Below, piece after piece: positions 32,440 to 52,612 of a stretch of DNA of 64,000 nucleotides. Origin of the DNA: Candidatus Bipolaricaulota bacterium (lineage in GTDB: Bacteria > Bipolaricaulota > Bipolaricaulia > RBG-16-55-9); contig JALSGO010000083.1 in the NCBI GenBank assembly GCA_026982655.1, forward strand, positions 30 through 64,029. Direction: 5' to 3'. The notes under the pieces are model-generated. The model was given only the letters and a program-made list of their open reading frames with translations, did not search any database and was not told the DNA's origin. The position numbers and the translations under genes are program-made. The stretch's first letter is position 1, and every line of letters starts with the position of its first letter.

Positions 32440-32468
32440 TTGACAACCCGGGTCGGTCGTGGTATCGT
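32440..32468 (+). promoter_or_regulatory. promoter TTGACA-17-(TGg)TATCGT heading the Rieske-copA-csoR string
   Basis: Consensus -35 at 32440..32445 and a -10 at 32463..32468 preceded by TGG (extended -10). Confidence 0.6.
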
Positions 32469-32480
32469 AGGATCGCCTTT

Positions 32481-32500
32481 CCCACCCCACCGGGGGTGGG
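32481..32500. promoter_or_regulatory. CsoR-type operator 1: CCCACCCC-ACCG-GGGGTGGG
   Basis: Perfect 8-N4-8 palindrome 13 nt downstream of the -10 box. It is one of four copies in the window, and csoR lies in the operon. Confidence 0.7.
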
Positions 32501-32530
32501 AAGAGCCCGAGGAAAGGGGAGGGATCTCTC

Positions 32531-33181
32531 GTGAAAGCGCGGAAGAAACGGCCCGAGGAGGAGCGGTGGGAACTCTCGCCGGAGGCGCGTCGACTGAGCC
32601 GGCGGAAGTTCCTGGCTCGCTTGGGCCTGGGCTCGCTGGTCCTCACGGCGGGAGGAGCGGTCAGCAGCATCGGCGCCTACATCCTGCCGAAGGTGAACTT
32701 TGAGCCCTCTCAAGCGTTTACCGCCGGGCGACCGGAGGACTACAACGTCGGGGACGTGCGGCTGATCGAATCCCAGGCCGTGTTCATCTTCCGCACGCCC
32801 TATGGCTTTCAGGCCGTCTCGGACATCTGCACCCACCTGGGGTGCGCCTATCAGCCGTACGGCCCGCCGGACGACGAGTACCCCCAGGTCCATGCCCATT
32901 GCCCCTGTCACGGGTCGGTCTTCGCGCGGGACGGGCGGGTGTTGCGGGCTCCCGCTCCTCGGCCCGTGCCCTTCTACTACATGACGATCAACCCATCGGG
33001 CTTGCTGGTGGTGGACAAGGGGGTCTACGATCCCACGGACGAGCTGAGCCGCCAGAGCGGCGAGGGGGTAGGGCACAACCTCTATCTCGACCCCGAGACG
33101 GGGCAGATGGTAGAGGGTCCGCTGCCCACCGGCGAGGACCTCCGGTTCGGAGCGATCCGAACCGAGCCCTCTCGAGGCTGA
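32531..33181 (+). CDS. Rieske [2Fe-2S] protein with Tat signal
   Basis: SRRKFLARLG twin-arginine motif, TM anchor, and the CTHLGC...CPCHGS cluster boxes. Confidence 0.88.
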   Translation: MKARKKRPEEERWELSPEARRLSRRKFLARLGLGSLVLTAGGAVSSIGAYILPKVNFEPSQAFTAGRPEDYNVGDVRLIESQAVFIFRTPYGFQAVSDICTHLGCAYQPYGPPDDEYPQVHAHCPCHGSVFARDGRVLRAPAPRPVPFYYMTINPSGLLVVDKGVYDPTDELSRQSGEGVGHNLYLDPETGQMVEGPLPTGEDLRFGAIRTEPSRG

Positions 33182-33268
33182 AGCCCGCGGGTGCGGAACG
33201 GGCGTGGAATAGAGAGAACAAAGAAGGAAGGCAAAGAAAGAATCTCCCAACGATGGAGGTGCTGTTCG

Positions 33269-35848
33269 GTGCAGAGATCGCAGGCACAGGCGAGGACGGC
33301 GACGGAGAAACGGGAGCAAAGCTCCGCGGACACGCGTCTGGAGCTCCCCATCCGCGGGATGACGTGCGCTTCGTGCGTGGCCCGGGTCGAGCGGGCGCTC
33401 CAAGGCGCGCCCGGCGTCCGGGAGGCCCAGGTGAACTTCGCCGCGGAGCGCGCGTCCGTGGTGCTCAACCCGGAGGCGGGCTCCCCGGAAGCGCTGGTGG
33501 AGGCCGTCCGCGAGGCCGGCTATGAGGTCCCCACCGAGGCGCTCACCCTGCGGGTAAAGGGGATGACGTGCGCTTCGTGCGTGGCCCGGGTCGAGCGGGC
33601 GCTTCGCGAGGTCCCGGGAACCTTGAAGGCCGCGGTCAACTTCGCCGCGGAGACGGCCCAGATCGAGTACCTCCCCGGGGTGGCCTCGCCGCAGGACTAC
33701 CTCCAGGCCGTCCGGGACGCGGGCTACGAGGCCCAGCTCGCCGAGGAGGAGCGGGGCGAGGACGCGCTGGAGCGCCAGAGGCGGGAACACGAGGCCCATC
33801 TCAAGAAGCTCCGCCTTAAGATCGCCGTCGGTGCGATCATCAGCGTCCCCGTCTTCTTCGGCAGCTACCCCAAGCTCTTCCCCTGGGTGCCGGAGATCCT
33901 GCAGAACTTCTACGTGCTCTGGGCGCTGACCACCCCGGTGCAGTTCTGGGTCGGCTGGCAGTTCTACAAGGGGACCTGGGCGGCCTTAAAGCACAAGTCC
34001 GCGGACATGAACACGCTGATCGCCGTCGGCACCTCCGCGGCCTACCTCTACAGCGTGCTCCTCATCTTGTTCCCCCGGTTCTTCGAGGCCCAGGGGATCG
34101 CCCGGGAAGTGTACTTTGACACCTCGACGATCATCATCACCCTCATCCTGGTGGGGCGGTATCTCGAGGCCGTGGCCAAGGGACGCACCTCGGAGGCCAT
34201 CCGCAAGCTCATGGGGCTCCAAGCCAAGACGGCCCGCGTGGTCCGCGACGGGCGCGAGATCGAGATCCCCGTCGAGGAGGTCCAGGTCGGCGACATCGTG
34301 GTGGTGCGCCCCGGCGAGAAGGTGCCTGTAGACGGCGTGGTGATCGAGGGCTCCTCCGCGGTGGACGAGTCGATGGTCACGGGCGAGTCGATCCCCGTGG
34401 AGAAGGGCCCCGGCGACGAGGTGATCGGGGCGACGATCAACAAGACGGGGACCTTTACCTTCAAGGCGACCCGAGTGGGCAAGGACACCTTCCTGAGCCA
34501 GATCATCAAGCTGGTCGAGGAGGCCCAGGGCTCGAAGGCCCCCATCCAGCGCCTGGTCGACAAGGTGACGGGCGTCTTCGTCCCGGCGGTGATGCTCATC
34601 GCCTTGGGGACGTTCGTCGTGTGGTACTTCTTCGGGCCGCACCCCGCTTTGACCTATGCGCTGCTCAACGCCGTGTCGGTGCTGATCATTGCCTGCCCCT
34701 GCGCGCTGGGGCTGGCCACTCCGACGTCCATCATGGTGGGGATGGGCAAGGGGGCCGAGCACGGCATCTTGATTCGCAGCAGCGAGGCGCTCGAGCGGGC
34801 GGGCAAGATACAGACCATCGTCTTCGACAAGACGGGGACGCTCACCCGCGGAGAGCCCCAACTGACGGACATCCTCCCCGCGGAGGGCTTCACGGAGGCC
34901 GAGGTGCTCCGACTGGCGGCGGCCGCGGAGCGGCGGAGCGAGCACCCCCTGGGGGAGGCGATCGTCCGAGGCGCCGAGGAGCGGGGGTTGGACTTGGCCG
35001 AGCCGGAGGGCTTCCAGGCGATCCCGGGCCACGGCATCGAGGCCACGGTCGAGGGGCACCGGGTGCTGTTGGGCAACCGGCGGCTCATGGAACGGGAGGG
35101 CGTCGACGTGCGCGCCTTGCAGGCCCAACTGGAGCGACTGGCCGACGAGGGCAAGACCCCCATGATCGTGGCCGTCGACGGCCGGGCAGCCGGGGTGCTG
35201 GCCGTGGCCGACACCCTCAAGGAGGGCTCCCGAGAGGCGATCGAGGCGCTGCACCGGTTGGGCATCGAGGTGGCGATGATCACGGGCGACAACCGGCGCA
35301 CCGCCGAGGCGATCGCCCGCCAGGTGGGGATCGATCGGGTGCTGGCCGAGGTGCTCCCCCAGGACAAGGCCAAGGAGGTCAAGCGCCTCCAGCAGGAGGG
35401 CCGGGTGGTGGCCATGGTGGGCGACGGGATCAACGACGCGCCCGCGCTGGCCCAGGCCGACGTGGGGATCGCCCTGGGGACGGGGACGGACATCGCCATC
35501 GAGACGGCCGAGGTCATCCTGATCTCGGGCGACGTGCGCGGGGTGGTGACCGCCATCGCCCTCTCCCGGGCCACGATCCGCAACATCAAGCAGAACCTCT
35601 TCTGGGCCTTCTTCTACAACACGGCGCTCATCCCTGTGGCCGCCGGGGTGCTCTACCCGTTCACGGGCCTGTTGCTCAACCCCATCCTCGCCGCGGCGGC
35701 GATGGCCACCAGCTCCGTCTCCGTGGTGACGAACGCCCTGAGGCTGCGGCGGTTCCGCCCCCCGGTCGTCCAGGGACCGCCCGGCCCCTCGCGCGGGGAG
35801 CCGCGCCCCGACTCCGTCCCGGTCCCGGCGGCCGGAGCGGGCCGCTAG
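33269..35848 (+). CDS. copA: copper-translocating P1B-type ATPase with two N-terminal HMA domains
   Basis: Two [15 protein letters not shown] motifs, CPC ([12 protein letters not shown]), DKTGTLT and GDGINDAP. Start placed at GTG 33269 (GGAGG 9 nt upstream). The longest ORF begins at GTG 33191 without an RBS. Confidence 0.93.
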
Positions 35849-35923
35849 AGGGCAGAGCGGACGACCGTCGATCGCCCTTGCCCTCGCAACCACAACGAAG
35901 AAGAGAAGAGAGGAGAGGAGAGG

Positions 35924-36238
35924 ATGACCGAAGAACTACTGGTGTTGTTACAGCAGGGGAGCCTGGCGGCCCACCCGGAGGCGAAGCGCCACGCCCAGCG
36001 GCTCGTCCGCACCGTCATCGGCCACACCCAGGGCATCGAGCGGATGATCGAGGAAGAGCGATACTGCATCGACATCTTAAAGCAGATCGCCGCGGTGCAG
36101 GGGCTGCTGACCAAGCTGGCCCACACCGTAAGCGAAGCCCACATGAAACACTGCGTGCGACTGGCCATCGAGGAGGGCCACGGCGAGGAGGCCGTTGAAG
36201 AACTGATGGAGACGCTGAAATACCTGCGGAGCGTATAG
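35924..36238 (+). CDS. csoR: CsoR-family copper-sensing transcriptional repressor
   Basis: 104 aa DUF156 pattern: RLVRTVIGHTQGIERMIEEERYCIDILKQIAAVQGLL...HMKHC, containing the C-H-C Cu(I) ligand set. Confidence 0.88.
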   Translation: MTEELLVLLQQGSLAAHPEAKRHAQRLVRTVIGHTQGIERMIEEERYCIDILKQIAAVQGLLTKLAHTVSEAHMKHCVRLAIEEGHGEEAVEELMETLKYLRSV

Positions 36239-36245
36239 TTCCCCC

Positions 36246-38663: not shown

Positions 38664-38722
38664 GCGGCCTGCTCTGCCGGACGAAGCCATTCGGAAGCGA
38701 GAGGAAGGGAGGAAAGGAACTC

Positions 38723-39373: not shown

Positions 39374-39424
39374 CTCCCGTGGGCAGACCGAAGGCTACAC
39401 GACAATCGGGGAGGGAATGCCAAG

Positions 39425-40000: not shown

Positions 40001-40015
40001 CCGAAGCGCTCGGTT

Positions 40016-40040
40016 GGGGCCGGGCACGGGGGACGGCCCC
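40016..40040 (+). terminator. GC hairpin after the DUF1573 pair (GGGGCCG-N11-CGGCCCC), no U-tail
   Basis: 7-bp stem located 16 nt after the stop. It could be an attenuator or terminator. Confidence 0.3.
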
Positions 40041-40098: not shown

Positions 40099-42771
40099 AT
40101 GGCCAAGGTCAAAGACCCCGTCTGCGGGATGGAGATCGACGAGGAAGAGGCCGTCGCCTCCCACGTCTACGAGGGGCAGACGTACTCCTTCTGCTCCAAG
40201 GACTGCGAGAAGGAGTTCGTCGAGAAGCCCGAGTTTTATGTCAAGCCGGAGCCCGCCCGCTCGGCGACCACGGGCGTGGACGTCGAGAGCACGGAGCCGG
40301 TGCACGCCGAGCTCCCCCTGGCGGGCTTGGACTGCACCAGCTGCGTGGTGACCGTCGAGCGCACCCTGCGGGAGGTCCCCGGCGTGGAGAGGGCCCACGT
40401 CAACTTCTCGCTGGGGATCGCGCACGTCACCTACGATCCCAAGGAGGCGAGCGTCGAGGACGCCGTCCAGGCGCTCAAGAAGGCGGGCTACGACGTGGGG
40501 GCCGCCGAGATGCGGGTGCGCATCGAGGGGCTTCGCTGCGCCTCCTGTGTGGGCTTCATCGAGGAGGCCCTGCGGAAGGTCCCCGGCGTCTTGGAGGCCA
40601 CGGTGAGCCCCGGAACGGAGACGGCGGTCATCCGCTACGTCCCCGGGATGGTGAGTTTTCCGGCGATCAAGGAAGCGATCGAATCTACGGGCTACAAAAC
40701 GGTCCACCGCCTGGAGGAGGAGGAGCCGCCCGATCAGGAGGCCGCCGCCCGCGAGCGGGAGTACCGCCTGCTCATGCGCCGCTTCCTCTTCGCCGCCGTC
40801 GTCTCCGTCCCGGTGCTCCTTACGGCCTATCCCGAGTTCGTGCCCTTCTTGAGGGATCTTCCCCGGAGCACGATCCGGCTCATCTGGGCCTTCGACGCGC
40901 TGCTGACGCTGCCCGTGTTGTTGTGGTCGGGTCAGCGCTTCTTCACGGGCGCTTGGGCGGCGTTCAAGCACCACAGCGCGGACATGAACACGCTGATCGC
41001 GCTGGGCACCGGCGCGGCGTGGGCCTATTCGACGGTCGCGATCGCCTTCCCTCAAGTGTTCCCCGAGGGGACGGCGGAGCCCTTCTTCGACGTGGCCGCC
41101 GTGGTCATCGCCTTGGTCGTGTTGGGCCAAGCGCTCGAGGTCCGGGCCAAGGGGCGCACCAGCGCGGCGATCAAAAAGCTTCTCGACTTACAAGCCAAGA
41201 CGGCCCGCGTGGTGCGCGACGGGCAGGAGATGGACATCCCCGTGGAAGAGGTGCTCGTGGGCGACGTGGTGGTGGTCCGCCCCGGCGAGAAGGTGCCTGT
41301 AGACGGCGTGGTGATCGAGGGCTCCTCCGCGGTGGACGAGTCGATGATCACCGGGGAGCCGATCCCCGTGGAAAAAAATCCCGGGGATGAGGTGATCGGC
41401 GGGACGATCAACAAGACGGGGTCCTTCAAGTTCCGGGCGACCAAGGTGGGCAAGGAGACGGCGCTGGCGCAGATCGTCCAGCTCGTACAACAAGCCCAAA
41501 GCACCAAGCCCCCGATCGCCCGGCTGGTGGATGTGGTGAGCGGCTACTTCGTGCCCGCGGTGATGATCATCGCGGTGCTGGCGTTCTTGGTATGGTTTAA
41601 TTTCGGGCCGGAGCCGCGGCTGACCTTCGCCCTGGTGACCGCGGTGACCACGCTGATCATCGCCTGCCCCTGCGCGCTGGGGCTGGCCACCCCCATGAGC
41701 ATCATGGTCGGGGTGGGCAAGGCCGCCGAACACGGGATTCTCATTCGCAACGGCGAGGCCCTCCAAAAGGCCTCGAAGCTGGACACGATCGTGCTCGACA
41801 AGACGGGCACGGTCACCAAGGGGAAGCCCGAGCTGACCGACGTGATCGCCGCTGAGGGCTTTACAGAAGACGAGGTGCTCCGCCTGGCGGCCAGCGCGGA
41901 GCGGGCCAGCGAACACCCCTTGGCCGAGGCGATCGTCCAGGGCGCCCAGGCGCGCGGACTGGAGCTTGCGGACCCCGAGACGTTCAACGCCGTCCCCGGC
42001 CACGGGATCGAAGCCACGCTCGACGGCAAGAGAGTGCTCCTGGGCAACGTAAAACTCATGAAGCGCGAGGGCATCGACGTCGGCGGCCTCCGCGAGGCGG
42101 CGGAGCGCCTCTCCGACGAGGGCAAGACCCCGATGTACATGGCCGTCGACGGCCAAGCCGCGGGGCTGATCGCCGTGGCCGACACGATCAAGGAAGACTC
42201 CGTCGCGGCCATTCGGACGCTCCAGGAGCTGGGGCTGGAGGTCGTCATGCTCACCGGGGACAACCGCCGCACCGCCGAGGCGATCGCCCGCCAGGTCCAC
42301 ATCGACCGGGTCCTGGCCGAAGTGCTCCCGGAGCAGAAGGCGGCAGAGGTGAAGAAGCTGCAGCTCGAGGGCCGCAGGGTCGGCATGGTCGGCGACGGGA
42401 TCAACGACGCGCCCGCCCTGGCCCAGGCCGACGTGGGCTTCGCCATCGGGACGGGGACGGACGTGGCCATTGAAGCTGCGGACATCACGCTCGTGGGCGG
42501 AAGCCTCCGCGGGGTGGTCACCGCCATCGAGATCTCCAAGGCCACCATGCGCAACATCAAGCAAAATCTCGTGGGAGCCTTCATCTACAACACGCTGGGC
42601 ATCCCGGTGGCCGCGGGGGTCTTCTATCCCCTCACGGGGATGCTGCTGAGCCCCCTCATCGCGGGGGCGGCGATGGCGTTTAGCAGCGTGACCGTGGTGA
42701 CGAACGCCAACCGCCTGCGGCGGTTCCGGCCCCGGATCGTCTCCGACTTCGAGGAAGGAGGTACGACATGA
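40099..42771 (+). CDS. heavy-metal (copper) P1B-type ATPase with N-terminal YHS/TRASH domain plus two HMA-like domains
   Basis: [13 protein letters not shown]...[12 protein letters not shown] (YHS), LDCTSC and LRCASC HMA motifs, CPC, DKTGTVT and GDGINDAP. Confidence 0.93.
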
Positions 42772-43142
42772 TCGCGCAAATCGTGGTGAACGTCTTGGGG
42801 CTGCTCGCGATCGTCTGGATCGTCTGGTACTTCTGGATCTACGAGAAGAAGGGCGTCGTGGCCGCGGAGGCGGGCGGCGCTCAAGAAGTTCGCATTCGGG
42901 TCAAGGGGGGCTACGACCCCGACGTCATCGTCGTCCAGGCCGGAAAGCCCGTGAAACTCCACTTCTACCGCGAGGAGGAGGCGTCGTGCAGCGAGACGGT
43001 CGTCTTCCCGGACTTCGCCCAGTCGCTGAAGCTTCCGCCCTTTGAGACCGTCACCCTGGAGCTTCTGCCGGAGAAGCCGGGGGAGTACGAGTTCCACTGC
43101 CAGATGAACATGCTGCGGGGCAAGCTCATCGTGGAGGAGTGA
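42768..43142 (+). CDS. cupredoxin-fold (Cupredoxin_1-like) membrane-anchored protein 1
   Basis: TM anchor and C-terminal [19 protein letters not shown]. The ATG overlaps the copA2 stop (ATGA). Confidence 0.75.
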
Positions 43143-43190: not shown

Positions 43191-44582
43191 ATGGGCGTAG
43201 ACTTGACGTTCCTCGGCGCCGCCGGGACGGTCACGGGCTCCAAGTATTGGCTCTCGGCGGGCGGCAAAAACTATCTCATCGACTGCGGGCTCTTCCAGGG
43301 ACCGGACGAGCTGGAGCAGCTCAACTGGGAACAGCTTCCCATCGCCCCCGCGGAGCTGGACGCCGTGGTGCTGACCCACGGGCACCTCGACCACTCGGGG
43401 TACCTCCCGCGGCTTGCGAAGAGGGGCTACTCCGGGCCGGTCTACGCCTCGGAGGCCACCTGCGCGCTGCTCGAGCTGCTTTTGCCCGACTCGGGATACC
43501 TGCAGGAGGAGCACGCGGGCTACGCCAACCGCAAGGGCTACTCCCGCCACAAGCCCGCGCTTCCGCTGTACACCTACGACCAAGCGCTCGAGTCCCTAAA
43601 GCTCTTACGGCCCGTGAAGCTCGCGGAGCCCTTCGCCGTAGACAAACACCTCACGGTCACGATGCGCCCGGCGGGCCACATCCTGGGCTCCGCGATCGTA
43701 GAGTGCGAGCTTGATAATAAAAAGATCGTCTTCTCCGGGGACCTGGGCCGCTACGATCAGGAAGTGATGAAATCCCCAGCGACGGTGACGCGGGCCGACT
43801 ATCTGCTGGTCGAGTCGACGTACGGCGATCGGGAGCACGGCGAGGACCCCATCGAAGATCAGCTGGCCCCCGTGGTGAACGCCGCTGTCGAGCGCGGCGG
43901 GGCGCTTCTCATCCCGAGCTTCGCCGTGGGCCGCACCCAGCACGTCCTCTACTACCTGCGAAAGCTCCAAGACCAAAAGCGCATCCCCGAGGTGCCCATC
44001 TACGTGGACAGCCCGATGGCCATCGACGCGACGGCGATCTACTGCCGCTTCGGAGATGAGCTCAACCTCAACGTCAACCTGCTGATGGACGACGAAGCCT
44101 GCCCGCTGCGCTGCCGCGACACGCGCTTTACGCGGACGGTCCCCGAGTCGAAGCGGCTCAACGACGCGCCGGGGCCTCTTGTGATCCTCTCCGCGAGCGG
44201 GATGTGCACCGGCGGTCGGATCCTCCACCACCTGAAGCACCGCCTGCCCGACCCCAAGAACACCGTGCTCTTCGTGGGCTACCAGGCCCAAGGCACCCGG
44301 GGCCGCAGGCTCCTCGAGGGAGCCGACGAGATCAGAATTCACGGGATGACCGTCCCGGTGCGGGCGGAGATCGCCCAGATCGACGGCCTCTCCGCCCACG
44401 GAGACGCCCGGGAGCTGATGCGCTGGCTCTCCGGGTTCGAGCGGCCTCCCGAACAGACGTTCCTCGTCCACGGGGAGCCGCACGCCTCCCAAGCGCTGGA
44501 GGAGCGCATTCGGAAGGAGCTGGGCTGGGCGACCCACCGGCCCCGCTACGGCGAGACCGTCTCCTTGGAGGGCAGGGGATGA
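43191..44582 (+). CDS. MBL-fold beta-CASP family hydrolase (RNA-metabolising metallo-beta-lactamase)
   Basis: FLGAAGTVTGSKY, LTHGHLDHSG, and beta-CASP motifs through to SAHGD. Confidence 0.88.
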   Translation: MGVDLTFLGAAGTVTGSKYWLSAGGKNYLIDCGLFQGPDELEQLNWEQLPIAPAELDAVVLTHGHLDHSGYLPRLAKRGYSGPVYASEATCALLELLLPDSGYLQEEHAGYANRKGYSRHKPALPLYTYDQALESLKLLRPVKLAEPFAVDKHLTVTMRPAGHILGSAIVECELDNKKIVFSGDLGRYDQEVMKSPATVTRADYLLVESTYGDREHGEDPIEDQLAPVVNAAVERGGALLIPSFAVGRTQHVLYYLRKLQDQKRIPEVPIYVDSPMAIDATAIYCRFGDELNLNVNLLMDDEACPLRCRDTRFTRTVPESKRLNDAPGPLVILSASGMCTGGRILHHLKHRLPDPKNTVLFVGYQAQGTRGRRLLEGADEIRIHGMTVPVRAEIAQIDGLSAHGDARELMRWLSGFERPPEQTFLVHGEPHASQALEERIRKELGWATHRPRYGETVSLEGRG

Positions 44583-45304
44583 TCCGCTACGCGCTCTTCG
44601 ACTTGGACGACACGCTCTATCCCCCGGCGGCGGGGCTCATGGAGGCCCTCAGCCGCCGCTTTACGCAGTGCATCGCCGAGGAGCTGGGCATCTCCCTCGA
44701 ACAAGCCGAGGCCCTGCGGCGCGAGTACGGCAAGCGCTACGGCTCGACCACGCGGGGGCTCGCCCTGCATCACCACGTGGACATCGGGGGATTTTTGGCC
44801 AAGGTCCACGACCTGCCCATCGAGGAGTATCTGCAGCCCGACCCCGAGCTGGGGTGTTTGTTGGACTGCATCGACGCGCAGAGGTGCATCTTCACCAACG
44901 CGCCGGAGGCCTACGCCCGGCGGGTGTTAGACGTCCTGGGCGTCGCGGATCGCTTCTGTCGGGTCTTCGCGGTCGAGTTCTCGGGTTATAGGGGCAAGCC
45001 CGACCCCCTCGTCTACGAGCGGGTGGTCGCCGAGCTGGGCGCTTCCGACCCGGAGATCGTGATGCTCGACGACGTGCGGGCCAACCTCCTCCCCGCCGCG
45101 CAGAGGGGCTGGACGACCGTCTGGGTCAACGGGCGGGGGAAGCCCGCCGACCCTCAAGACCTCGACGGGATCTCCTATGCGGTGGGCGACCTCTGGGAGG
45201 TGGCCCGCGTCTTCCGCGAGATCGGGCTCCTCGACGAGGCCCACCACGAGGAGTGGAACCGCTGCCTCCTCCGGTGCCCGCTGGGCCGGAGACGGGCTGG
45301 GTGA
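44579..45304 (+). CDS. HAD-superfamily hydrolase (pyrimidine 5'-nucleotidase-like)
   Basis: FDLDDTLY motif I, TNAP motif II and a late LDD motif. The ATG overlaps the upstream stop (ATGA). Confidence 0.8.
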   Translation: MIRYALFDLDDTLYPPAAGLMEALSRRFTQCIAEELGISLEQAEALRREYGKRYGSTTRGLALHHHVDIGGFLAKVHDLPIEEYLQPDPELGCLLDCIDAQRCIFTNAPEAYARRVLDVLGVADRFCRVFAVEFSGYRGKPDPLVYERVVAELGASDPEIVMLDDVRANLLPAAQRGWTTVWVNGRGKPADPQDLDGISYAVGDLWEVARVFREIGLLDEAHHEEWNRCLLRCPLGRRRAG

Positions 45305-45329
45305 CCTTGCTGGACGTCTTCCGGGGGGA

Positions 45330-45374
45330 ACATGACGCAGATCATTGATCCCACCCCACGGGGGGTGGGATAAT
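45330..45374 (+). promoter_or_regulatory. 45-nt promoter/operator module, copy 1: ATGAC-N4-ATCAT, TTGATC(-35), CsoR-type operator 2 (45350..45369) and GATAAT(-10)
   Basis: CCCACCCC-ACGG-GGGGTGGG fills the 18-nt spacer. The module is colinear with 48290..48334. Confidence 0.65.
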
Positions 45375-45405
45375 GGCGGGCGAAAGGCGGGCGAAGGAGG
45401 GACGC

Positions 45406-46491
45406 ATGGAAGCACAGAAGACGGTCATGCAAAGCCGACGGCGACGCCTCTGGGAGGCGCTCGACGAGCGCCTGGGGTTGAGCGCCCTGAGGTACCCCGT
45501 CCCCGCCCACGCCAACACGCTGGGATATATGTTAGGCGGGATCACCCTCTTTGGCTTCCTCATCTTGATCGCCACAGGCATTTATCTTACGCAGTTCTAC
45601 AACCCCGACCCCAGCCAAGCCCACGACAGCGTCGTCTACCTCGTCGAGCAGACGACGTTCGGGGACCTCGTCCGCAGCATCCACTACTGGACGGCCAACT
45701 TGGTGGTCGTCACCGTTCTCCTCCACCTTCTACGGATCTTCTTTGCGGGGGCGTACAAGCGGCCCCGGGAGGCCAACTGGCTGGTCGGCTTGGCGCTTTT
45801 GGCGATCACCATCGGCTTCGTCTTCACCGGCACGGTCCTCAAGTGGGACCAAGAGGCCTACGAGGCGATGCTCCACAACATGGCCTTCTCGGAGCTTCTG
45901 GGCGGGATCGGGAGCTGGTTCTCCCCAAGTTTTACCCTGAGCGTGCCGATGCTCACCCGCCTCTACGCCGTCCACATCGCGGTGCTCCCGGCGCTCTTCC
46001 TCATCTTGATCGCGATTCATCTGATGCTGGTCAAGTACCACGGGATCTCGCCGCTGCCCACCCTGAACGCTCGGGCGGGCACCTGGGGCAAGGAAGGGAC
46101 GGGCCGCTTCTCCGCGCACCTGCGGCGCATGGTGGGCTACGGGCTATGGCTGCTGGCCTTAGCGGGGGTGCTGGCGCTCCTCTGGCCCGCGCCGCTGGGC
46201 TATCCCCCGGTTCCGGGCGCCGAGGTGACGAAGCCCCCGTGGTTGTTCCTGTGGCTCTACGCCTTCGAGAACTGGGTGGGGACCGCCGGGCTGCTCTGGC
46301 CACCGCTTGTGCTCTTCCTGCTGCTGGCGTTGGTGCCCTTCCTCGACCGCAGCCCCTATCTGGCACCCCGAAAGCGACCCGTAACCGTCACGCTCGGCGT
46401 GGTGCTGTTGCTCTTTTTGGTCGGGTTGAGCGTGTACGTGGCCCTCACCCCGCCGGTGAGCCACATCCAAGGGCAAGGGATGGGAGGTTGA
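45406..46491 (+). CDS. cytochrome b (fused N- and C-terminal domains), paralogue 1
   Basis: RSIHYWTANLVVVTVLLHLLRIFF (H-x13-H), YAVHIAVLPALFLILIAIHLM (H-x14-H), and KPPWLFLWLYAFEN at the PEWY position. Start at ATG 45406 (GAAGGAGGG RBS); the upstream ATG 45373 lies inside the -10 box. Confidence 0.88.
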   Translation: MEAQKTVMQSRRRRLWEALDERLGLSALRYPVPAHANTLGYMLGGITLFGFLILIATGIYLTQFYNPDPSQAHDSVVYLVEQTTFGDLVRSIHYWTANLVVVTVLLHLLRIFFAGAYKRPREANWLVGLALLAITIGFVFTGTVLKWDQEAYEAMLHNMAFSELLGGIGSWFSPSFTLSVPMLTRLYAVHIAVLPALFLILIAIHLMLVKYHGISPLPTLNARAGTWGKEGTGRFSAHLRRMVGYGLWLLALAGVLALLWPAPLGYPPVPGAEVTKPPWLFLWLYAFENWVGTAGLLWPPLVLFLLLALVPFLDRSPYLAPRKRPVTVTLGVVLLLFLVGLSVYVALTPPVSHIQGQGMGG

Positions 46492-46495
46492 GACC

Positions 46496-47077
46496 ATGCG
46501 ACCACAGAGCAGTTGGGTTCACGTCGGTTGGATCACAGCGTTGCTGACGGTGGCGGTGGGGATCGGGCTTGCGGTGGGGCTTCCGGGACGGGCCCACGAG
46601 GGCGCGGAGGTGAGCGCCTATCCTACCACCGTGGCCCCGGGGGAGACGCTCTTCGTGGAGGGCGCGGACATCAACCCTAACGGCCCGATCGCCCTCTTCT
46701 TGGAGGGCGTAAAGGGCAAGTTCCGCCTGGGTCAGGTCCGGGGGGACGAGGACGGCGGGTTCAAGACGAGCGTGGCCCTCCCGCCGGATCTCCCGCCGGG
46801 GACCTATTTGTTGGTGGCCGTCGGGGCCAACGGGGAGAAGGCCACCTTCTCGGTGACGGTGGCCGCCGCGGTAAGCTCCCTCACCCAAGAGCCCAGGGAG
46901 CCCACGGACGCGCTCATGGAGCTGGACCGGTCAAGGTCCTCCGAGGAGTGGGCGTTCCTCGCCGTCGTGATCGGGCTGAGCCTGCTCCTGGGGGCGTGGC
47001 TGGCCCGCCCGGAACGGATGGTTGCACCTGCCTCTCCTTCTGCCTCCGCCGCCGAGCCCGACGGGAGCGGGCCTTGA
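46496..47077 (+). CDS. hypothetical exported protein with C-terminal TM anchor; predicted mature N-terminus is His
   Basis: Signal peptide ending LPGRA followed by HEGAEV, a beta-rich Ig-like middle, and the C-terminal helix WAFLAVVIGLSLLLGAWLA. GGGAGG RBS. Confidence 0.6.
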   Translation: MRPQSSWVHVGWITALLTVAVGIGLAVGLPGRAHEGAEVSAYPTTVAPGETLFVEGADINPNGPIALFLEGVKGKFRLGQVRGDEDGGFKTSVALPPDLPPGTYLLVAVGANGEKATFSVTVAAAVSSLTQEPREPTDALMELDRSRSSEEWAFLAVVIGLSLLLGAWLARPERMVAPASPSASAAEPDGSGP

Positions 47078-47103
47078 GCGCAAAGGGGGCCGAGAGGAAG
47101 GAG

Positions 47104-48309
47104 ATGAGCCGACGGGGGTACGAAGGAGTTTCGGTCGTGGGGGCCGGACCGGCGGGGCTTGTGGCGGCCCTCACGCTGGCCCGCGCAGGCGTCCCCGTCA
47201 CCGTCTACGAGAAGGGGCCGACGGTGGGCACCCGCTTCCACGGCGACTTTCAAGGCTTAGAGAACTGGTCCCGCGAGCTCGACGTCTTGGAGGATCTCCG
47301 GACGATGGGGCTTGCGATCAACTTCGCCGTGCAACCGCGCGACTCAGCGGACTTCTACGACGCCTGGGACCGGAAGTACGACATCAGGACCCGAGAGCCC
47401 CTCTTCTATCTGGTGCGCCGCGGGGGTGGGGAGGGGAGCCTCGACCGCGGGCTCTACGCCCAGGCCCGGGAGGCCGGGGTGCGGTTCCGTTTCCACACCA
47501 AGCTCGATCGGGTGGAGGGCCCGGCGATCGTGGCCACCGGCCCGCGCTACGCCGACGGCATCTGCGTGGGCTACCTCTTCGAGACGGACCTAGAAGACCT
47601 TACGGCCTGCATCCTCTCCCAGCGCCTGGCCCCCCGCGGCTACAGCTACCTCCTGGTGGCCGACGGTCGGGCGACGCTGGTGAGCTGCCACTTCGCCGAC
47701 CTCCCCCGCTGGCGGGATCATCTGGAGGCCACCGTCGAGGCCTTCCGAAAGCTTTACCGCTTTGAGATGCGGAACCCCCGCTTCTTCTCCGGCTACGGGA
47801 ACCTCTTCGCCCGGGGGCGCTTCCGCGACGGCCAAAAACTCTACGTGGGCGAGGCCGCCGGGCTCCAGGACGGCCTGTGGGGCTTCGGGATGCGCTTTGC
47901 CCTGCGCTCGGGATATCTGGCGGCCCAGAGCCTGCTCTCCGGCCAAGACTACGACGAGCTGGTCCGAAGGGAGCTTCTGCCGCACCACCGGGCGGGGCTG
48001 GTCAACCGCTTTTTCTGGAACCTCTTGAGCGATCGCATGTTGGCGTTCTTCCTGCGGCGGGCGGCGCGCTGGACCGACCTTCGGGGGCGGCTGCGCGAGC
48101 TCGCCGGGCCCCGTCCCTGGAAGGATCGGCTCTATCCCTTCATCCGGGGAGCCTGCGGCTGGCGGGCCCGCTACCGCGACGAGCGCTGCCTCCGGGAGGG
48201 GTGTCCCTGCATCGGGTGCGCGTGTCGGAGTCCTTCGCGTACGATCTCGAGCCCCTGCGTCTCTTGGGGAGCGGCTCGGTTCCGACTCGACATGACGCAA
48301 GTCATTTGA
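47104..48309 (+). CDS. FAD-dependent oxidoreductase (geranylgeranyl-reductase-like) with Cys-rich C-terminal tail
   Basis: VSVVGAGPAGLVAALTLARAG dinucleotide motif and the tail CLREGCPCIGCAC. GAGAGGAAGGAG RBS. Confidence 0.8.
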   Translation: MSRRGYEGVSVVGAGPAGLVAALTLARAGVPVTVYEKGPTVGTRFHGDFQGLENWSRELDVLEDLRTMGLAINFAVQPRDSADFYDAWDRKYDIRTREPLFYLVRRGGGEGSLDRGLYAQAREAGVRFRFHTKLDRVEGPAIVATGPRYADGICVGYLFETDLEDLTACILSQRLAPRGYSYLLVADGRATLVSCHFADLPRWRDHLEATVEAFRKLYRFEMRNPRFFSGYGNLFARGRFRDGQKLYVGEAAGLQDGLWGFGMRFALRSGYLAAQSLLSGQDYDELVRRELLPHHRAGLVNRFFWNLLSDRMLAFFLRRAARWTDLRGRLRELAGPRPWKDRLYPFIRGACGWRARYRDERCLREGCPCIGCACRSPSRTISSPCVSWGAARFRLDMTQVI

Positions 48310-48334
48310 CCCACCCCCTCTGGGGTGGAATAAT
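48290..48334 (+). promoter_or_regulatory. 45-nt promoter/operator module, copy 2: ATGAC-GCAA-GTCAT, TTGACC(-35), CsoR-type operator 3 (48310..48329) and AATAAT(-10)
   Basis: CCCACCCC-CTCT-GGGGTGGA occupies the -35/-10 spacer region. The -35 overlaps the stop codon of the FAD oxidoreductase gene. Confidence 0.65.
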
Positions 48335-48342
48335 AGAGTGAA

Positions 48343-48669
48343 ATGTCTGCAGAAGCGCGGCGCGGGATCGACAGCAGGTTCCGGGATCTCCTGTCCCTGT
48401 TGCTCATCGGGGTGTTGATCCTGCCGATGGCCGGCCCCTCCGGCCCCTTCACGGAGTCAGGGGCGTGTTCGGGGAACCCGCTTGAGGCGGGATGCGCTGC
48501 GATTCTGCATGTCGCCCGAGGCACGGCCGGTCATTGCCTGCCTTGTGGTGCCGTTGTCCTCCTGAGCTCTCCTCTGCCCTTTGCCTGGGCACTCGTAGGG
48601 GATTGGACTTCCGCCGGACTTGGCAGCCCGTTGGATCCGTCCTTTGTGCCCTGGCGTCCCCCTGCCTGA
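48343..48669 (+). CDS. hypothetical small membrane protein, Cys/His-containing, predicted leaderless
   Basis: The ATG lies 8 nt after the -10 box with no SD. One TM helix (LLSLLLIGVLILPMAG) and motifs CSGNPLEAGC and HCLPCG. Coding status is uncertain. Confidence 0.35.
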   Translation: MSAEARRGIDSRFRDLLSLLLIGVLILPMAGPSGPFTESGACSGNPLEAGCAAILHVARGTAGHCLPCGAVVLLSSPLPFAWALVGDWTSAGLGSPLDPSFVPWRPPA

Positions 48670-48784
48670 CCTCCGCTTCGTTCTTTTGCCCGTGCCCGCG
48701 GTCCTTTGAACGGGCCTTCGTCGGCCTAAGGGATCGTACGTATCTCAACTCCATCTGCAATCTGCACAAGGAGCAGGAGGTCGA

Positions 48785-49270
48785 GTGCCAATGCCTAAGA
48801 AGACGAACAAGGATCGGAAGGTCAAGCAGCAGCGTCTACTCCGGCAGGGGGCGGCCGGGGGCTGGCGGCCCTGGGCCTTTGGGGCCGTCACCCTCGGGGT
48901 GCTAACAGCCGCGTTTGGGCTGCTCTTGCCGAAGTTCTTCGCCGACGGTCCCGCAGCGGACGGGGAGGCCAACGTCATCCTGGTCGAAGCGGACATGGCC
49001 GGGCTCTATCCCAAGGAGATCCGGGTCAAGGCCGGGGAGCCCGTGACCATCCGCCTGCGCAGCTTGGACAACCGGTTCCACCTGGACGGGGGAGGCAAGC
49101 ACCAGTTCGCCATCGACGAGCTGGGGGTCAACATCATCGCTCCGCCGCTCGGCACGGCCGAGGCCACCTTCATCCCTACGGAACCGGGTGAATACGAGTT
49201 CTACTGCGACATCTGCTGCGGCGGGCGGGCCAACCCGACCATGGTAGGGAGGCTGATCGTCGAGCTATGA
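48785..49270 (+). CDS. cupredoxin-fold (Cupredoxin_1-like) membrane-anchored protein 2
   Basis: TM anchor and C-terminal PGEYEFYCDICCGGRANPTMVGRLIV. GGAGCAGGAGG RBS. An alternative ATG lies at 48791. Confidence 0.75.
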   Translation: MPMPKKTNKDRKVKQQRLLRQGAAGGWRPWAFGAVTLGVLTAAFGLLLPKFFADGPAADGEANVILVEADMAGLYPKEIRVKAGEPVTIRLRSLDNRFHLDGGGKHQFAIDELGVNIIAPPLGTAEATFIPTEPGEYEFYCDICCGGRANPTMVGRLIVEL

Positions 49271-50109
49271 GCGCTCTGACCCAGATCTCCGCGCGCAAGG
49301 TGGTGCTGGCCTCGGCGATCGCCCTGGGGGTGATCGCCGCCGCGGTCTTCTTGGGGCTGCGGCACCCCTCCGCCCAGGCCGTCCCGATGAGCCCGCTCCT
49401 CCCGGCGGTGACGCTGGGGACCATCGTGGTGGCCGGGATCGTCGACGGGATCAACCCCTGTGCCTTCACGGTGCTCCTACTGTTCGTTACTGCCCTGCTC
49501 GCGAGCCTGCAAACCCGCAGCGACGTCGGGATCGCCGAGAACGTGGGGGCCACGCGCGCCCGGATCGTGGGGCTCGGCTCCATCTACATCGCAGCCATCT
49601 TCCTCACCTACCTGGCGCTGGGGGCGGGGCTCTTGGTGACGGCAGATCTCTTCGTGCGGGAGCACCTGCCCGCCCGGATCGGGGCGCTGCTCGCCATCTT
49701 CCTCGGGCTGTGGATGCTCAAGGACTACTTCCTGCCCGGGTGGGGCTGGCGGCTGGGGGCCCCCAAGGTCGTGGGGGAGTGGGCCCGGCGCGCGGCCCGG
49801 AAGATGACCGTCCCGGCGCTGGCGCTCGGGGGCTTTCTCATCGGGCTCTGCACCGTGCCCTGCAGCGGGGCGGTCTACCTGGCGGTGCTGGCGCTCCTCT
49901 CGACCCAGCCGACCGCGACGGCCTTCGGGTACCTGGTGCTCTACAACCTGATGTTCATCCTCCCGTTGGTCGGGGTGCTGGCCGTGGCCGCGTCGCGCCC
50001 GGCGCTGAACCGCTTGGCCCGCTGGAACCTCCACCACCGGGAGGGGGTCCGGCTGGCCTTGGGGTCGGGTGTCGTGCTCATGGGGCTGTTCATCCTGTAC
50101 ACCGTCTAG
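49267..50109 (+). CDS. CcdA/DsbD-family thiol:disulfide electron-transfer membrane protein
   Basis: GINPCAF and CTVPCSG Cys motifs in TM helices, as in CcdA/DsbD/ScsB cores. The ATG overlaps the upstream stop (ATGA). Confidence 0.8.
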   Translation: MSALTQISARKVVLASAIALGVIAAAVFLGLRHPSAQAVPMSPLLPAVTLGTIVVAGIVDGINPCAFTVLLLFVTALLASLQTRSDVGIAENVGATRARIVGLGSIYIAAIFLTYLALGAGLLVTADLFVREHLPARIGALLAIFLGLWMLKDYFLPGWGWRLGAPKVVGEWARRAARKMTVPALALGGFLIGLCTVPCSGAVYLAVLALLSTQPTATAFGYLVLYNLMFILPLVGVLAVAASRPALNRLARWNLHHREGVRLALGSGVVLMGLFILYTV

Positions 50110-50159
50110 CTGGGAAACGGAGAACGGATCGAGAACCCAGGAGAAAGGAGGAAGCGGCG

Positions 50160-50480
50160 GTGAACAACCATCATGCGGGAGGCGGCAAGCCCTGCCACGT
50201 CGAGCGGCTGGAGAAAGAGGTGGACATGGAGGCGCTGCGCTCCACCCGGGTCAGCATCCTGGCGGTGACGGGGATGGGGTGTCCCAACTGTGCCCTGCGG
50301 GTGCACAACGCGCTCCTCGCCCTCCCCGGCGTCCATCGGGTGGACGTGGAGCTGGAGGCCGAGCGGGCGATCGTCTACTGGGACCCGACCGCCCTGCAGC
50401 CGGAGAGGCTGATCGAGGCGGTCTCCCAGGCTGCGGCGGGGACCCCTCACGACTACCGGGCGTACTTCGTGAAGCCGTAG
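50160..50480 (+). CDS. HMA-domain metallochaperone-like protein with His-rich N-terminus
   Basis: VTGMGCPNCALRVHNAL (GMxCxxC) and the N-terminal NNHHAGGGKPCH. GTG start 9 nt after AGGAGG. Confidence 0.75.
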   Translation: MNNHHAGGGKPCHVERLEKEVDMEALRSTRVSILAVTGMGCPNCALRVHNALLALPGVHRVDVELEAERAIVYWDPTALQPERLIEAVSQAAAGTPHDYRAYFVKP

Positions 50481-50642
50481 CGGAGCCACAGACGCAGAGC
50501 GGGGCTGCCCGGGGCCCGAGTCACCGTCGTCGCATCGGCTTCCACCTCCGCCCCGGGCAGCTCCCCGCCCTGCCCGCCGACGGCAGGGAGCTCCCACACA
50601 CGGGGAGAGAAGGAGAAAGGGAAGACACAAGGAGGGATTTCC

Positions 50643-51173
50643 ATGGACCTTAGGCTCATCGCCGTTGCGATCGTCTCCTTGGCGCTGGGGTTCCTCTTGG
50701 CCTCCGGCCTGCGCCCGGAGGTCGGGGTGGGGCCTTCGGAGGCGGAGCGGATCTTGGAGCGGCTGCGGCGCGAGATCATCCCGGAGGAGGGCAGCCCCAC
50801 GGGCTACGGGATCGCCTTCAGCGAGGCGGGCTACCAGACCCTGGTGGCCAAGAACCGCACACTCAGCGTCCCGCCCGAGCGGGCGGACGACTTCGAGGGC
50901 CTGGACATGAGCCTGCCCTGCTGTCCCTTCCAGAGCCCGAGCGTCGACGAGGCGAAGAACTGCCCGTGCGAGCACCATCAGGCGCTCTACGGGCTGGCCA
51001 AGTGGCTCCTCCAAGAAGACTATCCCGCAGACCGGGTCCAGGAGGAGGTGGCGCGCTGGAGCCGCTACCTCTTCCCCAAGGAGGCGCTGCGGGCGGAGAT
51101 GGAGCGGCGGGCGAAGCTCGATCCCGCCGTCGAAGCCGCCCTGGAGGAGCTCAAGGCCAAGGGGAAGTGCTAG
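50643..51173 (+). CDS. membrane-anchored Cys/His-rich hypothetical protein (LPCCPF...NCPCEHH)
   Basis: N-terminal TM helix and a clustered Cys/His motif reminiscent of the PCYCGC-motif family (recalled with low certainty). AAGGAGGGA RBS. Confidence 0.6.
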   Translation: MDLRLIAVAIVSLALGFLLASGLRPEVGVGPSEAERILERLRREIIPEEGSPTGYGIAFSEAGYQTLVAKNRTLSVPPERADDFEGLDMSLPCCPFQSPSVDEAKNCPCEHHQALYGLAKWLLQEDYPADRVQEEVARWSRYLFPKEALRAEMERRAKLDPAVEAALEELKAKGKC

Positions 51174-51227
51174 GCCGATTGGAACAGGGACGACCCGACG
51201 AGATCGAGGACGAGGAGGCGAGCGACG

Positions 51228-52541
51228 ATGATGGCATCCACAGCCGAACCGGCGGAAACGGAACCCCGACGGGGCGGGGGCCTGGGGAAGAGCCTTCGGG
51301 AGCGCTGGGCGCTCTGGACCCTGGGGCTGTTCGCCCTGCTGATCGTAGGGCTCTTCTTCTTCTACCGCCCGCCCATGGAGGAGAGCATCACGGGGGACAC
51401 CTTCCACCCCATCCGCGGGCTGATCGGCTTCCCCCACGGCCCGGGGGCCGCCGCGGAACCCTACGACGAGGAGGCCCTCGACCGCTTCGTGGAGGAGACG
51501 ATCGCGGAGACCTACGCCAAGGCGCGCATCGATCAGATCAAGCTCCTCCTCATGGGGCTCCTCATCGGCTTGATCCCGCTGGGCTATTACCGCGGTCGGT
51601 CGGACCGCCTAAAGCGCCTGGGACAGCGGGTCAACAAGATCTGGGACCCCTACACCTTCGGCACCGTCTCGGGGCTCCTTTTGGTGGGGGTGATCATCCC
51701 TACGGGGACGGTCCTCGGCCTCTTCTACAGCGCCGACGCGGAGAAGCTCTACGAGAGCATGGCGGGCATCGTGGGGAACCCCATCCTGAGTTTCCTGCGC
51801 AACCTCCACCTCTGGGCCTCGGAGGCGTTCTTGCTCTTCCTGTTCCTGCACACGGCCCGGATCGTCTCCACGCGGGCCTACTTTGCGGGACGCAAGCTCG
51901 TCTGGGTTCTGGGTGTCGTGCTGCTTGTGATCAGCTGGGCGACCTTCCTGATCGGCACCTTCATCCGGGGGGACCAGGAAGCGTTTGAGGCCTGGGTCCA
52001 CATGATGGCCCTCATCCGCTTCATCCCCCTCGTCGGGGACCCGATCGCCGACTTCTTCTCCGGCCCCTTCGCCGTCATGCGGCTGTACGTCTTCCACATC
52101 GTGATCACCACCATCGCCTTGCTGCTGATTCTGGCACCCCACGTGCTGATGCAGAAGGTGTACGTCCACGTGCAGCGGCGCTGGAGGGCGGCCCTTCGCT
52201 ACACCCTGGGGCTTACGGCCCTGATCGCGGTCCTCAGCCTGCTGGTGCCCGCCCCCTTCCTGGCGGAGCCCTACCACGACCTGGAGATCACCAAGCCACC
52301 GTGGCCCTATTACTTCCTGTACGCCTGGGAGAACATCGGCGGCGCGGTGAGCATGATCTGGTCGCCGCTGCTCATCCTGGTGCCGCTGCTTCTGCTGCCG
52401 TACGCGCTGGAGCAGCTGCCACTCGCCCGCCGGACCGCCCAACGGGTGGGCGACTGGGTCTTCTACGGCGGGGTCCTGATCACCTTAGGGCTGAGCTACT
52501 GGGTGGCCGCCTCGGGAATTGTGGCCCACGTCTTCGAATGA
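51228..52541 (+). CDS. divergent cytochrome b-like protein, paralogue 2, with N-terminal extension of about 130 aa
   Basis: RNLHLWASEAFLLFLFLHTARI (H-x13-H), YVFHIVITTIALLLILAPHVLM (H-x14-H), and KPPWPYYFLYAWEN. Confidence 0.8.
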   Translation: MMASTAEPAETEPRRGGGLGKSLRERWALWTLGLFALLIVGLFFFYRPPMEESITGDTFHPIRGLIGFPHGPGAAAEPYDEEALDRFVEETIAETYAKARIDQIKLLLMGLLIGLIPLGYYRGRSDRLKRLGQRVNKIWDPYTFGTVSGLLLVGVIIPTGTVLGLFYSADAEKLYESMAGIVGNPILSFLRNLHLWASEAFLLFLFLHTARIVSTRAYFAGRKLVWVLGVVLLVISWATFLIGTFIRGDQEAFEAWVHMMALIRFIPLVGDPIADFFSGPFAVMRLYVFHIVITTIALLLILAPHVLMQKVYVHVQRRWRAALRYTLGLTALIAVLSLLVPAPFLAEPYHDLEITKPPWPYYFLYAWENIGGAVSMIWSPLLILVPLLLLPYALEQLPLARRTAQRVGDWVFYGGVLITLGLSYWVAASGIVAHVFE

Positions 52542-52553
52542 GGAGGGCCGGAC

Positions 52554-52582
52554 TTGACAACCCTCCCCGGATGGGGTACAGT
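52554..52582 (+). promoter_or_regulatory. promoter TTGACA-17-TACAGT heading the MMPL2 string
   Basis: Consensus -35 at 52554..52559 and -10 at 52577..52582. Confidence 0.55.
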
Positions 52583-52592
52583 GAGACCATAT

Positions 52593-52612
52593 CCCACCCC
52601 AGGTGGGGTGGA
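52593..52612. promoter_or_regulatory. CsoR-type operator 4: CCCACCCC-AGGT-GGGGTGGA
   Basis: Same 8-N4-8 palindrome, 11 nt downstream of the -10 box and 7 nt upstream of the MMPL2 start region. Confidence 0.65.

Follow-up and report, generated by a model that had tools for sequence, protein, structure and literature searches.

The CsoR of Mycobacterium tuberculosis, encoded in the csoR-Rv0968-ctpV-Rv0970 string, directly controls one operon (PMC4801387); its cso operator, which overlaps the -10/-35 region (PMC10318464), was used in binding studies as GTAGCCCACCCCCAGTGGGGTGGGATAC (PMC10601412). For the CsoR of Thermus thermophilus (TTHA1719), the site is CCCCACCCCACCTGGGGTGGGG, and the described target is a single copZ-csoR-copA operon (PMC10318464). 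One Cu(I) sensor acts at several promoters through type 2 pseudo-palindromes in the cases of the Streptomyces lividans CsoR, which has three operator loci (PMC3902906), and of the M. tuberculosis RicR, which has a separate multi-gene regulon (PMC4801387). A type 2 CsoR operator is a pseudo-palindrome with two G/C tracts 2-4 bases apart (PMC3902906), and Cu(I)-sensing CsoRs are defined by an x-C-H-C triad together with a second-shell Tyr/Glu pair (PMC11672702). Here, we describe a 64,000-nucleotide (nt) stretch of DNA (the window; position 1 is its first letter) from contig JALSGO010000083.1 of a Candidatus Bipolaricaulota bacterium (GCA_026982655.1), which carries a csoR gene at 35924-36238 and four copies of a GC-rich palindrome. 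The four palindromes are quite likely operators for this CsoR, through which copper would derepress four promoters. In this way, genes for pumps, for redox proteins of the respiratory type, and for membrane lipids would probably be turned on by copper as one set.

The exact pattern CCCACCCCNNNNGGGGTGGR was found four times in the window, each copy with the 8+4+8 geometry, and a degenerate fifth site was the only other one at two or fewer mismatches. The sites (no strand assigned) were as follows.

32481 to 32500: operator 1, CCCACCCC-ACCG-GGGGTGGG
45350 to 45369: operator 2, CCCACCCC-ACGG-GGGGTGGG
48310 to 48329: operator 3, CCCACCCC-CTCT-GGGGTGGA, within the -35/-10 spacer of promoter P3
52593 to 52612: operator 4, CCCACCCC-AGGT-GGGGTGGA, beginning 10 nt past the -10 of promoter P4
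40046 to 40065: degenerate fifth site, CCCACCCCAGGAGGGAAGGG, that is, CCCACCCC-AGGA-GGGAAGGG, with a perfect left half

The sites at 32481 and 45350 match on the minus strand as well, because both are perfect palindromes. The number of matches to CCCACCCC-N4-GGGGTGGR in 100 dinucleotide-preserving shuffles was 0.00 on average and 0 at maximum. The generic form CCCC-N3-5-GGGG occurs in 34 copies in the window (66% GC); since this short C4/G4 core is common in such DNA, the specificity resides in the full 8+4+8 motif. The half-site octamer CCCACCCC was counted 24 times (expected, 7.2), and the best match to the operator in the first 32 kb had three mismatches. The window sites agree with the type 2 definition, and their 16-bp core CCCACCCC-N4-GGGGTGGG is identical to that of the bound operators of both M. 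tuberculosis and T. thermophilus.

Sigma-70-like promoters were called with a promoter scan. Between 32 and 64 kb, the scan returned the following four promoters only, and every one of them is overlapped by an operator copy.

32440 to 32468, + strand: promoter P1, type A, TTGACA-17-TATCGT (10/12 matches)
45345 to 45374, + strand: promoter P2, type B, TTGATC-18-GATAAT
48306 to 48334, + strand: promoter P3, type B, TTGACC-17-AATAAT
52554 to 52582, + strand: promoter P4, type A, TTGACA-17-TACAGT

In the type A design, a near-consensus TTGACA-17-TAnAnT promoter is followed 10-12 nt on by the operator (about +6 to +25). Operator 1, for example, starts 12 nt past the -10, and the start codon of the Rieske gene comes 30 nt after it. 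In addition to P1 and P4, the promoters of the CopA2, Csp, HMA, and YHS-CMAS genes of related genomes (see below) have this design. In the type B design (P2, P3, and their orthologues), TTGAY is followed directly by CCCACCCC-N4-GGGGTGGr and then by ATAAT, so that the spacer is exactly filled by the operator; operator 2 occupies the whole -35/-10 spacer of P2, and the -10 begins with the final base of the operator. A G-to-T change of this shared base in a related locus (L100) gives a perfect TATAAT.

The candidate repressor is encoded by the only CsoR-family gene in the window.

35924 to 36238, + strand: csoR, 104 aa, PF02583 at 84.7 bits (gathering score, 22.8)

The protein matched the structures 3AAI (T. 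thermophilus), 4M1P (Geobacillus), and 2HH7 (M. tuberculosis) with E values of about 1e-18, the best being 3AAI (3.4e-18). In the alignment with 2HH7, Cys48/His73/Cys77 correspond to the M. tuberculosis Cu(I) ligands Cys36/His61/Cys65, and Tyr47 (YC motif) and Glu93 correspond to the second-shell Tyr35 and Glu81. An RLXR motif (R25-L-V-R28) and a conserved Gln (K52-Q53), features implicated in operator binding (PMC3902906), could also be read from the sequence. The system thus resembles that of M. tuberculosis in the operator core, the overlap of operator and promoter, the ligand set with its Tyr/Glu pair, the CopA-type target, and the predicted autoregulation; as csoR sits in the operon headed by site 1, it would be autoregulated. 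It differs in having four or five operators instead of one controlled operon, and in lacking the actinomycete-specific C-terminal tail of about 30 residues (PMC11672702). With T. thermophilus it shares the same 8+4+8 core, but the ligands of the T. thermophilus protein are C-H-H (PMC11672702) and not C-H-C. An earlier note made from the letters of this DNA had placed the four 8+4+8 sites at the above positions, assigned each to a sigma70-like promoter, found no full copy in the first 32 kb, put a CsoR-family gene in the first gene string, and pointed to the M. tuberculosis cso operator for the motif. The pattern match, the promoter scan, the Pfam search, and the published operator bear out all of these points.

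A mechanism can be proposed by analogy. When copper is absent, apo-CsoR tetramers would sit on each 8+4+8 site; in characterised CsoRs, each site takes up two tetramers. A repressor that covers about +6 to +25 of P1 and P4 would prevent either formation of the open complex or promoter escape, and one lying in the -35/-10 spacer of P2 and P3 would exclude RNA polymerase. Binding of Cu(I) at Cys48/His73/Cys77 would lower the affinity for DNA, and all units would be derepressed together.

The comparison drew on contigs of relatives that code for CsoR (80-86% identical to that of the window), cytochrome b (80-86%), and the MMPL transporter behind site 4 (72-85%) (loci are designated below by L numbers), and about 232 kb of lineage DNA was examined. 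The window contig recurs in metagenome data of ENA, Logan, JGI, and NCBI; L001 and L002 are the window strain itself (99.9-100% identical) and bring no comparative information. Homologues with 72-80% identity are labelled Candidatus Bipolaricaulia, and the label Candidatus Fraserbacteria is attached to one member of a cluster at 90% identity. The earlier note had proposed that the sites be looked for in related genomes, and orthologous sites with variable spacers were indeed found there. Site 1 is perfect in L092 (6611), L093 (6448), and L095 (6697) and has one mismatch in L096 (7485). In the former three loci, P1 is also kept (TTGACA/TAnAnT), and the operator is in the same place, just past the -10 and ahead of Rieske-CopA-CsoR; the overlap of site 1 with the promoter/start region of this string is therefore a kept arrangement. 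Site 2 has orthologues in L097 (9213), L098 (1370), L099 (9677), L100 (1446), and L102 (11465), and also in L103, all upstream of a (DOMON-)cytochrome b gene. Those of site 3, in L088 and L089, are perfect with other spacers. Further sites were found in L100, ahead of a Csp copper-storage gene, an HMA gene, and a YHS-CMAS pair, and in L102, ahead of a CopA-Rieske-YHS string. Both promoter architectures are kept in the relatives, with a fixed register of the operator to the -35 and -10.

The degenerate fifth site of the window lies 33 nt ahead of the CopA2 gene, and no good promoter was found at it. In L097 (3814) and L099 (4324), CopA2 has a perfect operator behind a -10 TATACT box, which in L099 belongs to a full TTGACA-17-TATACT promoter; the window site is thus read as a decayed copy. 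Ancestrally, five or more promoters would have been under CsoR. At this locus, L097 and L099 also have two extra genes that the window does not have.

L088 and L089 were the only relatives among nine loci returned by a metagenome scan for the operator followed by ATAAT. L086, apparently actinobacterial and with the operator ahead of a P-type ATPase gene, was set aside as not related, and so were the low-GC, unrelated L084 and L090; the hairpin in L090 seems to follow a tRNA-like 3' end. A scan of a genome collection with the MMPL transporter encoded after csoR gave no close relative (best, 34% identical), and none of its 80 distant loci had the operator motif.

As an alternative, the palindromes might be true operators that answer to another effector (persulfide or another metal), or of which some are bound by a paralogue encoded elsewhere in the genome. 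The CsoR family does contain Ni/Co, formaldehyde, and persulfide sensors (PMC11672702), and the best NCBIfam match of the window CsoR is RicR at 63 bits, far under the cut-off of 175. In one relative, for which L095, L099, and L105 lie on one 147.8-kb contig, a second CsoR paralogue (L105, 10001-10312) is found at the end of a cytochrome c maturation (ccm) cluster, beside ArsR-rhodanese and DsrE genes. However, the x-C-H-C triad with its Tyr/Glu second shell is diagnostic of Cu(I) sensors, and copper proteins dominate the target genes (two CopA, HMA, YHS, cupredoxins, and the Csp gene in L100). The second paralogue is also of the C-H-C type, and there was no operator within 10 kb of it. We regard this alternative as unlikely.

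The palindromes might instead act as RNA hairpins, either as terminators of the upstream units or as stem-loops of 5' untranslated regions. For each site, a GC stem of 7-8 bp closed by a loop of 4 nt is predicted (-14 to -17 kcal/mol), sites 2 and 3 closely follow stop codons (about 45 and about 1 nt, respectively), and sites 1 and 4 would become part of the 5' untranslated region. Against this, no T-run follows any of the four sites, a terminator scan called none of them, and transcripts that start at P2 and P3 do not include sites 2 and 3. The register to the -35 and -10 is fixed, and the sequence itself, equal to known CsoR sites, is conserved across phyla. The 22 sites pooled from the window and relatives (a site with a 3-nt spacer in L101 was excluded) retain the left half CCCACCCC in 21 cases and the right half GGGGTGG in 20 and have 17 distinct spacers. 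All of the deviations (CCCTCCCC, GGGTAGGG, GGGACGGG, and a final A or T) are one-sided, each breaking a pair, and no compensatory change was seen among the 22 sites. Such near-invariant half-sites, with no compensatory change, point to operators bound by protein and not to RNA hairpins, which we consider very improbable. That the motif is a dispersed GC-rich repeat (of the kind of repetitive extragenic palindromes or miniature inverted-repeat transposable elements) near promoters by chance is hardly credible: the octamer is in excess and the generic C4/G4 form is common, but the full motif occurs at promoters only, both in the window and in the lineage DNA, where every site with up to two mismatches precedes a same-strand gene by no more than about 160 nt and none is in coding sequence, its positions are orthologous in relatives with differing spacers, and the four promoter regions do not align beyond their functional elements, so the similarity reflects function and not recent duplication. 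The earlier note had itself named a promoter-unrelated dispersed repeat as the finding that would refute it.

Some points weigh against CsoR operators at all four promoters. The orthologue of site 4 in L099 (19457) has two mismatches, and that in L101 (3484-3502), ahead of the same MMPL-LolA_like-YHS-CMAS string as in the window, has perfect half-sites with a 3-nt spacer (CCCACCCC-CCT-GGGGTGGG); for the paralogue TTHA1953, a one-base change of the spacer costs 10-15-fold in affinity (PMC10318464). The L101 spacer is a natural variant that could tune repression. The relative with the 147.8-kb contig has two C-H-C CsoR paralogues on that single contig, and for the window genome, motif distribution and CsoR paralogues were surveyed within 64 kb. 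The promoter calls assume sigma-70 consensus rules for this phylum, an assumption supported by the RpoD-like gene at 12667-13866. Finally, the operon extents given below are predicted from short gaps between same-strand genes. In view of these points as well, we retain the operator reading as the probable one.

All genes called between 28.4 kb and the window's end are on the + strand, and about 25 genes would come under the four or five operators. In addition to csoR, they are as follows (family assignments with Pfam).

32531 to 33181, + strand: Rieske [2Fe-2S] protein, PF00355, twin-arginine signal RRKFLARLGLGS
33269 to 35848, + strand: CopA1, Cu(I) P1B-type ATPase with two HMA domains and a CPC motif, PF00122, PF00702, PF00403
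36246 to 38663, + strand: MMPL/RND-superfamily transporter 1, PF03176
38723 to 39373 and 39428 to 40000, + strand: two DUF1573 (Ig-like) secreted proteins, PF07610
40099 to 42771, + strand: CopA2 (YHS and two HMA domains)
42768 to 43142, + strand: cupredoxin
43191 to 44582, + strand: beta-CASP metallo-beta-lactamase
44579 to 45304, + strand: HAD hydrolase
45406 to 46491, + strand: cytochrome b, PF00033, PF13631
46496 to 47077, + strand: 193-aa secreted, membrane-anchored protein, conserved in relatives, no family assigned
47104 to 48309, + strand: FAD-dependent oxidoreductase (FAD families)
48343 to 48669, + strand: small membrane protein
48785 to 49270, + strand: cupredoxin of the third string
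49267 to 50109, + strand: 280-aa polytopic Cys-pair protein, SfLAP match below threshold (23 bits; threshold, 35)
50226 to 50480, + strand: CopZ-like HMA protein with a GMGCPNC motif
50643 to 51173, + strand: 176-aa Cys-rich protein
51228 to 52541, + strand: 437-aa cytochrome b-like protein
52628 to 55573, + strand: MMPL transporter 2
55625 to 56407, + strand: LolA-like protein
56461 to 57798, + strand: cyclopropane-fatty-acid (CFA)-synthase-like methyltransferase
57816 to 58022, + strand: 68-aa YHS-domain protein

The start codon of CopA1 was taken from the L001 gene call, and the protein matched TIGR01511 with 667 bits (cut-off, 397); the Rieske protein had weak matches to b6f/bc1 Rieske families in NCBIfam. 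The CopZ-like and the YHS genes (50226-50480 and 57816-58022) are missed by simple picking of open reading frames and were confirmed with Pfam. Four transcription units are predicted from the gaps. Unit 1 would consist of Rieske, CopA1, CsoR, MMPL transporter 1, and the two DUF1573 proteins, and transcription probably reads through past the decayed fifth site into CopA2, cupredoxin, beta-CASP, and HAD. Predicted unit 2 consists of cytochrome b, the 193-aa secreted protein, and the FAD oxidoreductase; predicted unit 3, of the small membrane protein, cupredoxin, Cys-pair, CopZ-like, Cys-rich, and cytochrome b-like proteins; and predicted unit 4, of the MMPL, LolA-like, CFA-synthase-like, and YHS proteins. 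After 58022, a further MMPL/LolA-like/propeller-rhodanese/methyltransferase set follows without an operator of its own, and the extent that can be firmly tied to the operators would be about 25.6 kb (32440-58022). The earlier note had spoken of about 30 kb and of a regulon far larger than the usual copZ-csoR-copA unit. The claim as to size was overstated, given the three loci of S. lividans and the RicR regulon already known. Its target list stood as to the Rieske, cytochrome b, cupredoxin, MMPL, and CFA-synthase-like genes (Pfam), but the protein it took to be CcdA-type (49267-50109) had only the sub-threshold SfLAP match. Its MMPL lipid exporters do belong to the MMPL family (Pfam), and lipid export is a reading of the family name.

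Much of this gene order is kept in the relatives. The Rieske gene adjoins CopA in L092, L093, L095, and L102, MMPL transporter 1 comes after csoR in L092-L094, and DUF1573 orthologues were found in L092, L095, L097, and L099. The order CopA2-cupredoxin-betaCASP-HAD is identical in L097 and L099. Orthologues of cytochrome b are 80-86% identical; the 193-aa protein is kept in L097, L099, L100, L102, and L108, always after this cytochrome b. Gene strings orthologous to the third string were found in L099 and L100.

Another conserved element was found at the type B promoters, namely an FNR/CRP-like box.

45332 to 45345, no strand assigned: FNR/CRP-like box at P2, ATGACGCAGATCAT, abutting the -35, centre at about -42.5
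48292 to 48305, no strand assigned: FNR/CRP-like box at P3, ATGACGCAAGTCAT, abutting the -35

The pattern ATGAYNNNNRTCAT occurs twice in the window (expected, 0.04) and precedes every type B promoter. It is kept in eight related loci (L088, L089, L097, L098, L099, L100, L102, and L103); the orthologues of the P3 box are ATGACGCAGGTCAT in L089 and ATGATATGGATCAT in L088, and some relatives have an extra FNR-like box 22 bp farther upstream. The FNR consensus is TTGAT-N4-ATCAA. With its 5-4-5 palindromic form, the box has a core, TGAY-N4-RTCA, that covers the FNR core TGAT-N4-ATCA; its outer bases are A...T, in contrast to T...A in the FNR consensus. It would lie about 42 nt before the inferred start, and it overlaps the -35, as in class II CRP/FNR promoters. 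Class II activator sites are centred near -41.5, and both the sequence and the centre near -42.5, calculated from that inferred start, would fit such a site. A Pfam search across the whole window found no CRP/FNR regulator gene. From the conserved box at the class II position, we suggest that the units behind P2 and P3 are probably gated by two signals, release by copper and a predicted activator. A weak palindrome in the spacer of P4 (CCCTCCCCGGATGGGGTACA, 52561-52580) had no counterpart at the orthologous promoters of L099 and L101 and was treated as a chance occurrence.

As for what the non-efflux genes do, we tentatively put forward, as a possibility we hold to be doubtful, that they form an undescribed copper-stress module with a quinone-linked extracytoplasmic redox half and an envelope half. 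The former would comprise the Rieske protein exported by the twin-arginine route, cytochrome b and its partners (70-80 aa and about 170-190 aa), the cupredoxins, the Cys-pair protein, and the FAD oxidoreductase, and its role might be an oxygen-independent change in the redox state of extracytoplasmic copper. The latter would comprise the MMPL/LolA-like exporters and the CFA-synthase-like methyltransferase. The gating of the module in this lineage would be by CsoR derepression and an FNR-type activator. In a variant of this idea, CsoR would be a copper-sufficiency switch for a copper-dependent respiratory branch. Distant genomes bear on the link to copper. A Chloroflexi genome (L107/L108), with a cytochrome b 60% identical to that of the window, has a string of PEMT, CMAS, CopA, EamA, cytochrome b, 81-aa, 172-aa, two HMA, and YHS genes, and a genome with a 48%-identical MMPL transporter (L104) keeps MMPL, LolA-like, DUF1302, and CopA(YHS). 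No C4-N4-G4 operator of the window kind was found in either locus. The copper neighbourhood is thus kept without the operator, which shows that the gene association predates the CsoR wiring, and the recurrence of non-efflux genes beside CopA, HMA, and YHS genes supports a real functional link to copper, with a regulator that differs between lineages.

The operators of S. lividans CsoR and RicR, of the TACCC-N-GGGTA type, are unlike those of the window. The genes under their control encode chaperones, ATPases, a metallothionein, and a multicopper oxidase, without Rieske/cytochrome b, cupredoxin, MMPL/LolA-like, or CFA-synthase genes, and none has the composite promoter with the FNR-like box. 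In the literature, we found no described CsoR regulon with Rieske or cytochrome b genes and no description of copper regulation in Bipolaricaulota. The mechanism, the protein family, the operator sequence, and CsoR-family regulons with several promoters have been described before. The novelty is in the host lineage, the set of target genes, and the composite promoter of type B, and no paper was found that describes any of them. For a phylum with hardly any cultured members, the locus offers a compact regulon map that can be tested directly at the bench. The 16-bp code CCCACCCC-N4-GGGGTGGG is found in Actinobacteria, Deinococcus-Thermus, and this Bipolaricaulota-like lineage, which suggests an old or highly portable repressor-operator pair, and this shared code is useful for regulon prediction and biosensor design. 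About ten uncharacterised genes are flagged as probably copper-responsive and give an entry to copper defences beyond efflux; among them are the cytochrome b/Rieske set, the MMPL/LolA-like and CFA-synthase-like genes, and the genes of two secreted proteins that bear Cys or His. If confirmed, the composite promoters of an FNR-like box and a spacer operator would amount to a simple natural gate with two inputs.

Relaxed Pfam and NCBIfam searches gave no usable match for the proteins at 46496, 48343, and 50643, and a single-sequence AlphaFold model of the 193-aa protein (46496-47077) was too poor for a fold search (pLDDT, 48.6). The 193-aa protein has a signal peptide, a conserved His directly past the predicted cleavage site (A, then HEGAE), and a C-terminal membrane anchor; in its Chloroflexi homologue (L108, 9309-9827), the cleavage site reads A, then HGAAE. 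It may carry a histidine-brace copper site.

In the 196-bp gap ahead of the beta-propeller/rhodanese gene, 39 consecutive G are found (61504-61542), a run that may be genuine or may have arisen during assembly. Upstream of the cluster, the window has ordinary chromosomal content, with genes for an RpoD-like sigma factor and an Opp-type ABC transporter as well as hrcA, dnaK, and dnaJ. Inside the RpoD-like gene, a direct, non-inverted repeat GGGGTGGG-N4-GGGGTGGG (12759-12778) is coding sequence and not an operator. Directly downstream of dnaK-dnaJ lies a gene of the Rad52/Rad22 recombinase family (26445-27191), a family that, to our knowledge, is uncommon among bacterial housekeeping genes.

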